Positions 30,344 through 40,499 of a DNA stretch of 64,000 bases are shown here, one piece after another. The stretch's first letter is position 1. Every line of letters begins with the position of its first letter. Under the pieces are notes generated by a model that saw nothing but the letters and a program-made list of their open reading frames with translations, was not told the origin of the DNA and made no database searches. Position numbers and translations under genes: made by a program. This DNA comes from Escherichia coli O157:H7 (lineage in GTDB: Bacteria; Pseudomonadota; Gammaproteobacteria; Enterobacterales; Enterobacteriaceae): NCBI RefSeq assembly GCF_013167455.1, contig NZ_CP038328.1, one strand, 5' to 3'.

Positions 30344-30369
30344 TTGGTGCCGAAGGCCGGACTCGAACC
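30344..30369. repeat. 26-bp direct repeat of the leuX 3-prime end (att-type repeat, island junction)
   Basis: TTGGTGCCGAAGGCCGGACTCGAACC is identical to 40414-40439, which lies inside the tRNA gene; flanks diverge on both sides. Confidence 0.8.
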
Positions 30370-30859
30370 TAAGTCTCCATAACCTGCTGTAATCACGTTC
30401 CTATTAGCCTTTAAAAGAACAATCGTAGGACCTTTTTGTTCTAGGGGCTACATCTTAAGTTTGATCCGCTGGACGGAATCAAACCGAGTGTTCGTGGCGG
30501 CACAAATCATTAACGTGCCATACCTGCCTTTTGATGTTTATGGAGGTCTAGTGGGTCGGGAGGAAAGAACATTTGTCAGCTATGTGGATGTTAAGTAAAC
30601 GCCACTGCGTTCGGATTTTGAAACCAGTTAAACCCCGTCAGACCTTGTTCAGAATAACTATTTAACTCAATGTTATTTATATGAATTAAGCCATTCAGCG
30701 TCAAAGTAAAACGCCACCGTAACGCCTACGTAACGCACCCGCATTTTGCTGTTTTATTCACTCTTATAGAAACAAAGAGCTGATGAAACGTGAGGCTATC
30801 AGCATCTAATGAACACTGTTCATCCATACAGCATGAAAATTCATAAACTTACACTTGAG

Positions 30860-31324
30860 CTACTTTCTCAGCTTGTCCCACCGAACCGCAGATACAATAC
30901 CCCAGTTGCCGCTAGGATTAGGCCTACGCCATTTTGCTGTCTCCATGCTACGAAGATACTCAAGAGCTTCAGAAAACGTGCCAAACCGCTTCTGAGCCGT
31001 TTTATCACCTACGCCAAACGAGCCATCGCGAGTGCTTGCCAGCCCGGGATGAAAACACGAGCCATCAGCTGCATAAGGAACCAGTAATTCCGGGTCACTA
31101 TCTTCAGATGAATCAGACACCAATAGTCGCCACGGCTCAACACTCAGAGCATTAGCCAGCACCTCAATCGCATCCAAAGACGCATTAGAGCCACCGCGTT
31201 CAATGCGGCTCATATAGCTACGAGCAAAACCACACCGATCGGCAAAGGCTTCTTGGCTCATTCCGGTGGCAATGCGCAACTCTTTTACTCGTTGTCCAAA
31301 CAGTTTTCTCAGGGTCATTTTCAT
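30860..31324 (-). CDS. XRE-family helix-turn-helix transcriptional regulator (154 aa)
   Basis: Track ORF; N-terminal HTH LRIATGMSQEAFADRCGFARSYMSRIERG. Confidence 0.7.
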   Translation of the reverse strand: MKMTLRKLFGQRVKELRIATGMSQEAFADRCGFARSYMSRIERGGSNASLDAIEVLANALSVEPWRLLVSDSSEDSDPELLVPYAADGSCFHPGLASTRDGSFGVGDKTAQKRFGTFSEALEYLRSMETAKWRRPNPSGNWGIVSAVRWDKLRK

Positions 31325-31440
31325 GACCTGAATTTGCGCAGATGTCCACTAAAGAGCCACGCTCCAATAGTGACATTTTGAATCAATGGTCTATGATGCG
31401 ATAACTGACACCGCTGGGGTGGATTCTGAGGGATAACAAC

Positions 31441-32214
31441 ATGTCAAAAACACGGCTTAGTAAGCCCGGTTTTTCAGCCAAGTCTGTGCTGACCATTATG
31501 TTAATCGCTGCGTCATCTGCATCTTATGCAGCAGAAAGCATCGATCAACTGGCGACGCGCATCGGTATGGATCACTTCCGGGAAGCGATCAAAAAGGGTG
31601 AACGCAGCGCCTTCAAAACGCTGCCGGCAAAAGGCTATAAAAACGGTCTTACCGGGCTGTTAATCAAAACTAACACTTACGTTAACCCCGAATACAGCTT
31701 TGCTGATTGCGATACGGACACCGTTATTATCTCGGTGCAAGAACACAAAACGCTTCCCGGTTGCCGTATATCTTTAAAGCTAGCGACAAAAGACGCAGAT
31801 GGCAGTTATCACGACAATGGAATTCGCGTTGAATACGGTATTGCCATCGGCTCCAAAAAGTTTATCGCTAACAATTCAGCGTGGGCGCAACATGCCATCA
31901 GCGGTGATAAAGTGTTGGAAGGCGCTCTCCACCCGGATAAAACGAATAACAATAAAGATCAAATGAATAACAATAAAGATCAAATGTGCATGGGTATGGC
32001 TCAATTTACCGCAAACGTAACCGAAGGCCGTAACAGTGGGATGACGAAAAGAGAATATTATCAGCGACTTGATAACATGAACGGTAAGGCCGACGTCACC
32101 CAGCAGATGATAACGCTCTATAAGACTTTTGTTGACTACGTATATGAACATCCAAAGCAAGACGCAAAGATTTCAGGGACGTATATTTATACTAACTGTA
32201 TGAACAACTTCTAG
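31441..32214 (+). CDS. Secreted or periplasmic protein of unknown function (257 aa) with internal NNNKDQM tandem duplication
   Basis: Track ORF; Sec-type signal peptide (hydrophobic core LTIMLIAASSASYA then AES); divergent from the XRE regulator. Confidence 0.6.
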   Translation: MSKTRLSKPGFSAKSVLTIMLIAASSASYAAESIDQLATRIGMDHFREAIKKGERSAFKTLPAKGYKNGLTGLLIKTNTYVNPEYSFADCDTDTVIISVQEHKTLPGCRISLKLATKDADGSYHDNGIRVEYGIAIGSKKFIANNSAWAQHAISGDKVLEGALHPDKTNNNKDQMNNNKDQMCMGMAQFTANVTEGRNSGMTKREYYQRLDNMNGKADVTQQMITLYKTFVDYVYEHPKQDAKISGTYIYTNCMNNF

Positions 32215-38018: not shown

Positions 38019-38341
38019 TTTTTCCAGAGGCGGTCGAACTCCGCCTTCGCAAAATAAGCGGAAGCCTGGCGAAGGATATCGTTACTGCGGCGCAGTTCAC
38101 GATTTTCACGTTCCAGCTCTTTCAGACGCTGACGTTCAGCGCTGGTGAGCCCACCATCACCGCCCCCGGTATCCCGCTCATGCTGGCGAACCCAGACACG
38201 CAGAGTCTCCGGCGTACAGCCAATCTTTGGGGCAATGGAACAAATTGCCGCCCACTGTGAGTCATATTCATCCTGACTTTCCAGAACCATACGAATCGCC
38301 CGCTGACGGACTTCGGGGGAAAAACGAGTATTTTTAGTCAT
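38015..38341 (-). CDS. IS629-like transposase OrfA (108 aa)
   Basis: Track [25 protein letters not shown]...; HTH plus leucine zipper, matching IS629 OrfA from memory. Confidence 0.85.
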
Positions 38342-38392
38342 CCTGTTTACCTCTTTCTCAGGGAGTTTAGTCTCCAGGATTTCCGGGGCGGT

Positions 38393-40366
38393 TCACTTTC
38401 TTCGCAGCGCATCTCTTACAGCATCCAGCCCATCAGGAATGTTGAATCTCGCTATCTCGGGCAAAGAAAAATCAATCTTTTCGACAACCTCAACCATGTG
38501 AACCGGTTTTAAATCTTTGCTGTATCGCACTTCAGTTTCTGTTTTGCCTCGCACATGCCCAAGTAGCTGCCCACGCAGTTCCGAACTAACACCCTTCTCT
38601 TTAAGCAAAGTTGAAACAGAATGCCGGAAAGAGTGGAAAGATTTGCTTCTGTCTCTTTCAAGTTTTAATCGACCCGCAAGCAATGATTCATTGAACCATG
38701 CGGAAACCGGCCTACCATAGCCTTTGGTTTTATGTGGTTTAAGCTCGGGAAAAAGACGGTCATACCCGGCAGCTTTCAACGCATCCACATACTCGATAAA
38801 ACCGAGTTCAATCAGCGTAGAATGAACCGGAATCTTGCGGCGGGAATTGGCGTTTTTTAGTTTCTTTCCGTTTTCGCTATCGCTTTCAAGGTTCAGGTAA
38901 TAAACGCCGTCATCTGCCAGAACATCGTCCAGCATTAACTGTGCAATCTCGTTAACCCTTGCCCCCGTCATCAAGCCCAACAACGGCGCCCAATAGTGAA
39001 ACGGGCAATATTGATGGAATCGCCCTTGCGCATTACGTTCAACAGTTCCAGCGACAAACCACGGTTGCGAAAAAATTGCCTTAATTTCATGCGGTTCAAA
39101 TATGTCAGTGTGATCCTGCTCTCGCTCACCTTTGTCATCGGGAGGGAAAAAGTTGTCGCATGGCGATTTCAGAAACTTACCATCATCAACAGCCCACTCC
39201 ATTGCACCATAAAGGCCGTTGATATACTTTTTGACAGACTCTTCTGTCATCAGTTTATCGCCACATTCTGCCGCTTTGGCGATTAACTCATCCAGCGTCT
39301 TAACCCCGTGCTTACCTTTCATCAAATTACGGTTAGCAGGAATTGTGCGCAACTTGCTCTCATAAGCCCGGAGGAAATCACGGTCGAAATCTTCCAACTG
39401 AATATCCCCCATCACTTCAATCATCAAATCGAAGTAATAGCGAATATCGCGGAGCGCCGCTTCTGATACCTTGCCCTTACGTCGATGTTTCAAATACTCT
39501 TCACGAAGCCATGACAAGTTTTCATTGTAATGTTTGCGGTGAACATATTCATTAGCGATAACAGGAGCGACAAGAGGCACGGCAGGGTGAATGCTAACTG
39601 CTGGTGGCGTGGTCTTAACCAGCCATGTAAGTCGAAGGCCTTCAGCATGAACTTTGCTAATCAACAGGCTATCAGCAGTTATATCTACGCCGGGTAAATC
39701 GAAGAACCAACCTCCACTTTGGTTATCACCACTAGTTCGAAATGCAGCCTCTCCTTCGGATACTCCAGCGCTCAACAGACAATCTAAAGTATGCCGGGGA
39801 TTGAAGGGGCGGAGATAACCATTTGCGAAGCTCTCGATACCCAGCTCAAACGCGCTATTGAGAATGATGACTTCTTTAGGTTGATCCTTTTCATCATCAG
39901 ACTGTTTTTCTCGTTTTGCACCCGGTTCCCGCTCTACTGCATTAAATTCATCAACATAGAAACCGAACTGACCAGTCGCCAGCCAGAATACCGGGAGGTT
40001 ACGATTAACCACCTCTCGAATCAATTGCGATATAGGCAACTCGATTGATTGAGCAAAGTTAGAAAGCGAGATCATACCCTCACCAGCAAGCAGTGGGGCG
40101 CAGTCACTTAAAGTTCGATAATCCAATTGTTCATACTCTTGTAAGGTCTGATACCAGACCGCCAACAGGAGCGCGGACTTCTGCTTTGCTTCATGAAGAT
40201 CGTGAGTGCCTGTTGAAGTGTGAATCTCACACTGTCCTGCGTATCGACGAAAACGTTGGGGAACGCTAATGCGGACAACATAAATGCCGCTGGTTCGACG
40301 ATAGAGTTTATATCGCTGAGACATCGCCTCGTATACCCTTTTGTAAGAGGGGCTACGCGATTTCAA
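38393..40366 (-). CDS. Tyrosine recombinase / integrase with long N-terminal extension (657 aa), next to leuX
   Basis: Track ORF; catalytic signature TGARVNEI...HSFRHSVSTLL...LLGH...VRYSKDL. The stop codon is supplied by the IS629 terminus. Confidence 0.75.
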   Translation of the reverse strand: MKSRSPSYKRVYEAMSQRYKLYRRTSGIYVVRISVPQRFRRYAGQCEIHTSTGTHDLHEAKQKSALLLAVWYQTLQEYEQLDYRTLSDCAPLLAGEGMISLSNFAQSIELPISQLIREVVNRNLPVFWLATGQFGFYVDEFNAVEREPGAKREKQSDDEKDQPKEVIILNSAFELGIESFANGYLRPFNPRHTLDCLLSAGVSEGEAAFRTSGDNQSGGWFFDLPGVDITADSLLISKVHAEGLRLTWLVKTTPPAVSIHPAVPLVAPVIANEYVHRKHYNENLSWLREEYLKHRRKGKVSEAALRDIRYYFDLMIEVMGDIQLEDFDRDFLRAYESKLRTIPANRNLMKGKHGVKTLDELIAKAAECGDKLMTEESVKKYINGLYGAMEWAVDDGKFLKSPCDNFFPPDDKGEREQDHTDIFEPHEIKAIFSQPWFVAGTVERNAQGRFHQYCPFHYWAPLLGLMTGARVNEIAQLMLDDVLADDGVYYLNLESDSENGKKLKNANSRRKIPVHSTLIELGFIEYVDALKAAGYDRLFPELKPHKTKGYGRPVSAWFNESLLAGRLKLERDRSKSFHSFRHSVSTLLKEKGVSSELRGQLLGHVRGKTETEVRYSKDLKPVHMVEVVEKIDFSLPEIARFNIPDGLDAVRDALRRK

Positions 40367-40414
40367 GCAAGATTATGAATTAAATTGTTTTAAAACAATA
40401 GTTTAGATGAGTCT

Positions 40415-40499
40415 TGGTGCCGAAGGCCGGACTCGAACCGGCACGTATTTCTACGGTTGATTTTGAATCAACTGCGTCTACCGATTTCGCCACTTCGGC
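40415..40499 (-). tRNA. leuX: tRNA-Leu (anticodon CAA), leuX
   Basis: Reverse complement reads GCCGAAGTGGCGAAATCGGTAGACGCAGTTGATTCAAAATCAACCGTAGAAATACGTGCCGGTTCGAGTCCGGCCTTCGGCACCA; cloverleaf with CAA anticodon and CCA end. Confidence 0.9.

Follow-up and report, generated by a model that had tools for sequence, protein, structure and literature searches.

Tandem arrangement of the integrative islands SpLE5 and SpLE6 at the leuX tRNA gene of Escherichia coli O157:H7

How did two integrase genes and two copies of one tRNA-derived sequence come to lie side by side at leuX in Escherichia coli O157:H7, and in which order did the islands that carry them arrive? The locus was analysed in one 64-kb stretch of E. 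coli O157:H7 DNA (the window), for which an earlier note, made from the sequence alone, had proposed that a ~10-kb island was inserted between leuX and an older island with a decayed integrase. The two islands are SpLE5 and SpLE6, which together make up O-island 172 (OI-172), named the MAO island in EDL933 (Xu et al., 2013; PMC3681947), and lie in tandem at leuX, a recognised integration hotspot. The locus has already been described and published: the Sakai RefSeq record (NC_002695.2) labels a "phage-like element SpLE5" and an adjoining island "SpLE6", and the tandem architecture and its reading are public in that annotation and in earlier work (Zhang et al., 2007; Asadulghani et al., 2009; Xu et al., 2013). 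We consider it highly probable that these are two unrelated integrative islands, both using leuX and stacked head to tail, SpLE6 having entered first and SpLE5 second.

The leuX locus and its two islands

The features on which the argument depends are as follows (att, attachment site; IS, insertion sequence; aa, amino acids).

40415-40499, minus strand: leuX, tRNA-Leu(CAA), intact (ARAGORN; Rfam tRNA, 59.4 bits; leuX in the Sakai annotation)
40414-40439: tRNA-proximal copy of the 26-bp repeat, the attL core, from the T-loop to the CCA of leuX plus one base
30370-40413: SpLE5 body, read as the younger element (Sakai SpLE5, ECs5242-ECs5252; left part of OI-172), 10,044 bp between the repeats
38393-40324, minus strand: SpLE5 integrase, a large tyrosine recombinase of 643 aa with an N-terminal DUF6538 and a C-terminal Phage_integrase domain
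37086-38395, minus strand: IS629/IS1203 (IS3 family), 1,310 bp, with 26-nt terminal inverted repeats and an ALIL frameshift pseudoknot (121.5 bits)
30344-30369: distal copy of the 26-bp repeat, an orphan partial copy, attR of SpLE5 and the old tRNA-side junction of SpLE6
29362-30144, minus strand: P4-type integrase remnant, pseudogene (RefSeq tyrosine recombinase "missing C-terminus"; PRK09692 match)
29055-29242, minus strand: transposase fragment replacing the 3' part of the P4-type integrase gene (RefSeq pseudogene mapped at offset +11299; also in O55:H7 CB9615)
1-30343: proximal 30 kb of the island read as the older one (Sakai SpLE6; right part of OI-172), from annotation and comparison with Sakai

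The 26-nt sequence TTGGTGCCGAAGGCCGGACTCGAACC is identical (26/26) at 30344-30369 and 40414-40439, exactly where the earlier note had placed it. No further copy was found in the window with up to three mismatches permitted, and 100 dinucleotide-preserving shuffles of the window gave no match at the same threshold. ARAGORN and Rfam located a single tRNA, tRNA-Leu(CAA) at 40415-40499 on the minus strand, so that the 40.4-kb repeat copy consists of the final 25 nt of leuX and one further base. The attachment site is the 3' end of leuX, and the tRNA stands at the 40.4-kb end of the element; the wording of the earlier note could be read as placing it at the 30.3-kb end. In genomes free of SpLE5, the distal repeat copy belongs to the intact leuX gene.

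In the window, SpLE5 spans 10,070 bp (10.07 kb); the size of SpLE5 minus its IS is about 8.9 kb. Sakai, strain 9000, and PNUSAE146743 all have its attL and attR junctions without a mismatch. O157:H7 chromosomes match the 10-kb stretch at 100% identity, and 227 of the 5,426 complete E. coli genomes that served for the empty-junction and allele searches contain 80% of it or more. The Sakai elements (SpLE5, 10,235 bp; SpLE6, 34,148 bp; NC_002695.2) occupy the same locus, with both junctions identical base for base, the same genes (ECs5242-ECs5253), and IS629 at the same site; the window differs from Sakai by an extra 166-bp deletion, leaving an element of 10,070 bp and an integrase of 643 rather than 649 aa. 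SpLE5 thus has the marks of a tRNA island, namely an intact tRNA, a repeat at the far boundary, an integrase next to the tRNA, and a precise presence/absence polymorphism.

A second tRNA-3'-end-like sequence, TTTGATCCGCTGGACGGAATCAAACC, lies at 30460-30485, within the element and about 90 bp away from the distal repeat, and has 69% identity to the att repeat; the Nissle-type and E. kobei elements retain it. It could represent either a fossilised attachment site or an arm site for the integrase.

Beyond the distal repeat, the open reading frame (ORF) at 29317-30222 (minus strand) matches PRK09692 over positions 6-272 of 413 (E = 4.5e-54), and the C-terminal catalytic part is absent; the truncated P4-type integrase of the earlier note is thus borne out, also by the RefSeq call. 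The remnant retains the N-terminal 261 residues, model positions 273-413 being gone with a transposase fragment in their place. It shares 93% identity with the N-terminal part of a 421-aa E. kobei integrase that is intact (domains Arm-DNA-bind_3, Phage_int_M, and Phage_integrase) and matches integrases in 570 phage records, IntS-type included. By family-model match the pseudogene at 29362-30144 appears to be a P4-type integrase, and a complete catalytic domain is lacking. A third repeat copy bounding SpLE6 was found neither in the window (up to three mismatches) nor in the 32 kb out to fimH/gntP in a reference strain. Because its integrase has no catalytic C-terminal part and there is no recognisable far-end repeat copy, SpLE6 is immobilised, and the label given to it in the earlier note is justified.

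Empty sites and the order of arrival

A synthetic SpLE5-free junction was built by joining 29700-30369 to 40440-41000, that is, by deleting 30370-40439. This junction is contiguous in 373 of the 5,426 genomes and 100% identical in O157 strain 10671, and both that strain and O55:H7 CB9615 match a 247-nt version of it exactly. The comparison with empty leuX sites that the earlier note had proposed therefore exists in complete genomes and agrees with its reading of serial integration; the same junction lacking an island boundary, which the note had named as evidence against the repeat being the crossover, was not found. [quoted passage not shown]

The polarity comes from O55:H7. CB9615 lacks SpLE5; the SpLE6 that it carries has the same integrase pseudogene (783 nt) and the same transposase fragment, placed directly next to leuX. 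This strain is of the progenitor type, belonging to the lineage that gave rise to O157:H7. Since CB9615 has the truncated integrase without SpLE5, SpLE6 had already decayed while SpLE5 was absent. The simplest reading, supported by these comparisons, is that SpLE6 is the older island and that SpLE5 is the younger, entering an intact tRNA. Gain of SpLE5 after the O55/O157 split is more parsimonious than loss and is favoured here, and Xu et al. (2013; PMC3681947) described OI-172 as composite, with progressive gain since O55:H7.

A deeper date for the decay of SpLE6 was sought in an O111:H8 island, which was compared for the same integrase truncation. That candidate was rejected, since the O111:H8 island is another one (BREX, AbiE) and its integrase is truncated differently.

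Integrase, proposed mechanism and rival explanations

The SpLE5 integrase gene (38393-40324) begins 90 bp from the tRNA. The ORF at 38393-40366 (minus strand) has 657 codons when counted from an upstream TTG, and the true start is most likely the ATG at 40324, as in an annotated homologue. The integrase and its position next to the tRNA thus stand as the earlier note gave them, and its length of 657 aa does not: the protein has 649 aa in Sakai, strain 9000, and PNUSAE146743, and 643 aa in the window, where all 643 aa are identical to the corresponding part of the 649-aa WP_000083142.1. Pfam matches are to PF20172 (4.2e-8) and PF00589 (8.6e-9), with a weak match to a SAM-like core-binding domain. 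In an alignment, R456, H564, R567, H590, and Y601 correspond to the catalytic residues of XerA (PDB 4a8e), and none of the five varies among 19 homologues, which come from Enterobacter, Cronobacter, Yersinia, Pectobacterium, and Pantoea. With the R, H-x-x-R, H, and Y nucleophile all present, the 643-aa protein is predicted to be a tyrosine recombinase and is catalytically plausible. The gene occurs in exactly one copy in each of 617 E. coli genomes, at 99% identity or more in 232 and at 80-90% in 366. No characterised member of this DUF6538-type integrase family was found.

The neighbouring IS was identified as IS629 by its length (~1.3 kb), terminal inverted repeats, and orfA/orfB frameshift pseudoknot, and is annotated IS1203 in Sakai. 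In Sakai and EDL933 it lies 145 bp downstream of the integrase stop with a 3-bp CTG target duplication and no deletion. The left junction in the window is the same as in Sakai, and the 166 bp to the right of the IS are deleted, taking the last six integrase codons and the 3' flank; the TGA stop of the integrase (38393-38395) is provided by the IS629 terminus, and the target duplication is missing because of the adjacent deletion. Among the 5,426 complete E. coli genomes, this deletion junction was found in one, the bovine strain FRIK1989. Strain 9000 has no IS in the element, and in PNUSAE146743 an IS lies inside the serine recombinase gene.

We propose that the 34-kb SpLE6, driven by its P4-type integrase, would have integrated first at the leuX 3' end. 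An IS remnant would then have cost it the catalytic half of that integrase and, with no far-end repeat, SpLE6 would have been fixed in place. SpLE5 would later have entered the still intact leuX in a site-specific manner through its own 649-aa DUF6538-type tyrosine recombinase, which probably carries out the integration reaction. A circular attP bearing a copy of the leuX 3' end would have recombined with leuX, the incoming tRNA 3'-end copy rebuilding the gene and the displaced chromosomal copy becoming the 26-bp repeat at 30344-30369 between the islands. IS629 would afterwards have inserted downstream of the integrase gene, giving the Sakai/EDL933 state, and in the lineage of the window a 166-bp IS-adjacent deletion would then have clipped six C-terminal codons.

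The position of the crossover is indicated by a related element in Yersinia enterocolitica, whose two att copies, compared at locus positions 9895-9911 and 17235-17259, differ at one T-loop base, the tRNA copy reading GGTTCGATTCC (T) and the distal copy GGTTCGAGTCC (G). At this base leuX has T in Y. ruckeri and Ewingella and G in E. coli, Enterobacter, and Serratia, so the G would have arrived with the Yersinia element and stayed on the distal side. A distal G places strand exchange 3' of that T-loop base, and we infer that exchange occurs in the last ~17 nt of leuX, with the prediction that it falls within TCCGGCCTTCGGCACCA. The pattern further suggests that the Yersinia element came from a host with a G-type leuX.

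Several observations weigh against the proposed history. The earlier note had suggested a PCR for the circular excised form; such assays were negative in Sakai, where a circular form was detected for no SpLE, whether mitomycin C was added or not (Asadulghani et al., 2009; PMC2669165), so that any movement of SpLE5 today is conjectural. Searches with NCBIfam, PHROGs, and PADLOC revealed no excisionase-like gene in SpLE5, the integrase of the window is without its last six residues, and the crossover position relies on a single-nucleotide difference in one species. The absence of SpLE5 from O55:H7, lineage II, and strain 10671 could also be due to loss instead of later gain.

In its full form, this last objection holds that the tandem pair was ancestral to the O55:H7/O157:H7 complex and that SpLE5-free genomes arose by repeated precise excision. 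The base-perfect SpLE5-free junction is what excision would leave; strain 10671 is without the element while strain 9000, from the same United Kingdom cattle series, has an IS-free copy; phage type 31 (PT31) strains within lineage I are missing it (Zhang et al., 2007); and its loss in O55:H7 has been held possible (Xu et al., 2013; PMC3681947). Several independent losses would be needed, however, and no circles were detected in Sakai. The progenitor-type CB9615 has the truncated P4-type integrase abutting leuX without SpLE5, and even on this account SpLE5 must have entered the tRNA-proximal site of an existing island, or have entered before that island. We regard such a history as rather unlikely; were it true, SpLE5 would not be demonstrably younger in this lineage but would be competent for excision. 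The order could instead be reversed, with SpLE5 integrating first and the P4-type island later entering the distal 26-bp repeat of SpLE5. Both element types use the same tRNA-derived core, either copy being usable in principle, and the layout of DUF6538 element, repeat, and P4-type integrase recurs in E. kobei, Serratia, and Ewingella. Against this, a P4-type integrase lies directly against an intact leuX in CB9615 and in the 373 E. coli genomes, the distal copy provides only 26 bp of tRNA sequence, and the truncation of the O157 P4-type integrase is the same as in the SpLE5-free CB9615, so that this integrase was already dead. Reversal is accordingly judged very improbable.

The annotation of EDL933, in which the locus is one O-island with two integrases, would fit the acquisition of OI-172 en bloc as a single 44-kb island whose internal repeat and second integrase are relics of a previous host. 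Each island nevertheless occurs without the other, SpLE6 alone at leuX in CB9615 and 10671 and SpLE5-type elements without SpLE6 in a Nissle-derived strain and in Yersinia, and we give this account hardly any credence. A chance origin of the 26-bp repeat, or an error of assembly behind it, can be dismissed, given the empty result from the shuffled sequences and the same junctions in independent complete genomes. Stacking of SpLE5 in front of a resident SpLE6 is thus the reading retained here.

Gene content and related elements at leuX

The remaining features of SpLE5, in order along the window, are followed by those of SpLE6.

30860-31318, minus strand: XRE-type helix-turn-helix regulator (ECs5252) at the distal end of the element (phrog_8, E = 1.5e-18; PADLOC "control protein", E = 7.1e-18)
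31441-32214, plus strand: cargo gene ECs5251, 257 aa, no family match
32366-33682, plus strand: cargo gene ECs5250, 438 aa, with a predicted PD-(D/E)xK nuclease-like domain and no Pfam or PADLOC family
33881-34450, minus strand: small serine recombinase of the resolvase/invertase type (ECs5249; phrog_125 DNA invertase, E = 2.4e-57; NCBIfam Mpi family, E = 1.3e-26)
34643-35110, plus strand: DUF1643 protein (ECs5248; annotation; phrog_3230, E = 1.3e-52)
35111-36113: ORF-less 1-kb stretch, in which ORFs of at least 60 codons are absent and conservation is the highest in the element
36114-36446, plus strand: NIPSNAP-family protein (ECs5246), neighbour of the integrase and conserved across genera
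36568-36945, plus strand: DUF4160/DhiT-toxin-like protein (ECs5245; annotation; NCBIfam NF048015, E = 6.1e-13, below the curated cutoff)
1-23780: giant helicase and methyltransferase gene cluster in SpLE6
23992-27465: type II Zorya system in SpLE6
28006-28857: phosphorothioate-sensing endonuclease in SpLE6

SpLE6 extends ~4 kb beyond the window start, to a truncated nanS. The lowest G+C content in the window (0.30, at 55001-56000) appears to belong to the core gene yjgL and not to an island.

No phage structural, packaging, or lysis genes were found in SpLE5; its PHROGs matches are the integrase, the regulator, the DNA invertase, and unknowns, and the label "prophage-like" was rejected for want of such phage genes. 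Relaxase, coupling protein, and type IV secretion genes were likewise absent in NCBIfam and PHROGs searches, and SpLE5 does not qualify as an integrative conjugative or mobilizable element; an unrecognised origin of transfer (oriT) within the ORF-less stretch is conceivable. The backbone common to the elements of different genera consists of the integrase, the NIPSNAP protein, the small serine recombinase, and the far-end XRE-type regulator, the remaining genes being variable. The serine recombinase gene ECs5249 is intact in the window and broken by IS1203 in PNUSAE146743.

The cargo genes ECs5250 and ECs5251 had no match in Pfam, NCBIfam, or PADLOC, and a sequence search of the PDB returned nothing significant for either (one chance-level match, E = 0.69). 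The structure model of ECs5250 is confident (predicted local distance difference test score, pLDDT, 88), and its homologues range from Enterobacterales to Acidisoma with an invariant P-D...E-x-K motif. Homologues directly follow a prophage integrase in Klebsiella aerogenes, and in Acidisoma they are flanked by Abi-type genes; these features would fit a role of ECs5250 in defence. A transposon screen cited by Zhang et al. (2007) found ECs5250 to be required for calf colonisation. In the variable cargo of related elements, PADLOC recognised the candidate systems PDC-S06 (E. coli KY174), PDC-S49 (Y. enterocolitica), PDC-M18A/B (E. kobei), and PDC-S60 (Nissle type).

The ORF-less stretch at 35111-36113 is held by 595 E. 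coli genomes, in one copy per genome, and is annotated in none of them; a repeated mobile element was ruled out by this single-copy state. O157 and Y. enterocolitica are ~97% identical over 35110-35510 compared with only 73% in the integrase gene, and O157 and the Nissle-type elements are 98.6% identical in the stretch compared with only 82-85% in the integrase gene. The sequence folds far better than shuffled sequence on both strands (z = -3.3 and -3.9), and its substitutions have no clear codon periodicity. Searches gave no Rfam match at E <= 1 and no match in a phage collection, and simple scans gave no promoter or terminator. RNAalifold on six copies, which are very similar, returned a covariation term of just -0.85 kcal/mol, and all copies from a metagenome scan were 95-100% identical; covariation is not assessable because the available copies are too similar. 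Either a structured RNA or a DNA site that acts in cis could account for the stretch.

In Y. enterocolitica, E. kobei, Serratia sp., and a gut metagenome contig, homologous elements lie beside tRNA-Leu(CAA), and the repeat at which they terminate is again the tRNA-derived one. The element of the Nissle-derived strain (89% identical DNA) has the same distal repeat, followed by unrelated DNA and no P4-type integrase. A P4-type integrase does follow the distal repeat of the DUF6538-type element in three other genera: an intact 421-aa protein in E. kobei (locus 19853-21342), a gene with a premature stop in Serratia sp. PL17 (locus 17993-18993), and a 479-codon ORF in Ewingella americana (locus 20114-21835). 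The Ewingella element is flanked by 127-bp repeats (locus 9784-9910 and 20072-20198) that comprise the whole of leuX and its promoter region, and the genome therefore has two full tRNA-Leu(CAA) copies. The stacked arrangement is, by these gene orders, apparently not peculiar to O157, and its recurrence in E. kobei, Serratia, and Ewingella would mean that stacking has resulted repeatedly from competition between two element families for a single site.

A further partial copy was observed on the IncY plasmid pCP53-92k (NZ_CP033095.1, 5554-10662), where 44 nt of the leuX 3' end have a 418-aa tyrosine recombinase on one side and, on the other, a DUF6538 integrase of 636 aa and a NIPSNAP gene together with a portion of the conserved non-coding core; the segment is a plasmid-borne piece of an SpLE5-like element.

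Among known systems, the KpLE2/intB island of K-12 and PAI II of strain 536 have P4-type integrases at leuX, as does SpLE6, and K-12 shares with SpLE6 the 49 bp just past the tRNA. Unlike the window, both are single islands with other cargo and no DUF6538-type element in front. Tandem accretion at one att site is known, for example, from the arrays of cis-mobilizable elements (CIMEs) and integrative and conjugative elements (ICEs) in streptococci. The likeness is that a second element recombines into the att site of a resident and leaves an internal att copy; the window differs from CIME-ICE arrays in that neither element has recognisable conjugation genes and the two integrases are unrelated.

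As a tentative extension, which we hold possible and somewhat doubtful, SpLE5 might be one member of a widespread family of leuX-specific Enterobacterales islands with a ~640-aa DUF6538 recombinase, a habit of stacking before P4-type islands, and variable, probably defensive cargo, in which the conserved 0.5-1 kb non-coding region would be a new structured RNA or cis-acting mobility site. The O157:H7 locus serves as a clean case, checkable in full, of islands stacked at a single tRNA attachment site, to which the present analysis adds small corrections in the integrase length, the strain-specific clipping by IS629, and the negative circle PCR. Leads rather than results, but relevant to the spread of small islands with defence genes, are the tandem layout seen in four genera, the variable cargo, which in O157 includes an unclassified predicted nuclease, and the conserved non-coding stretch.

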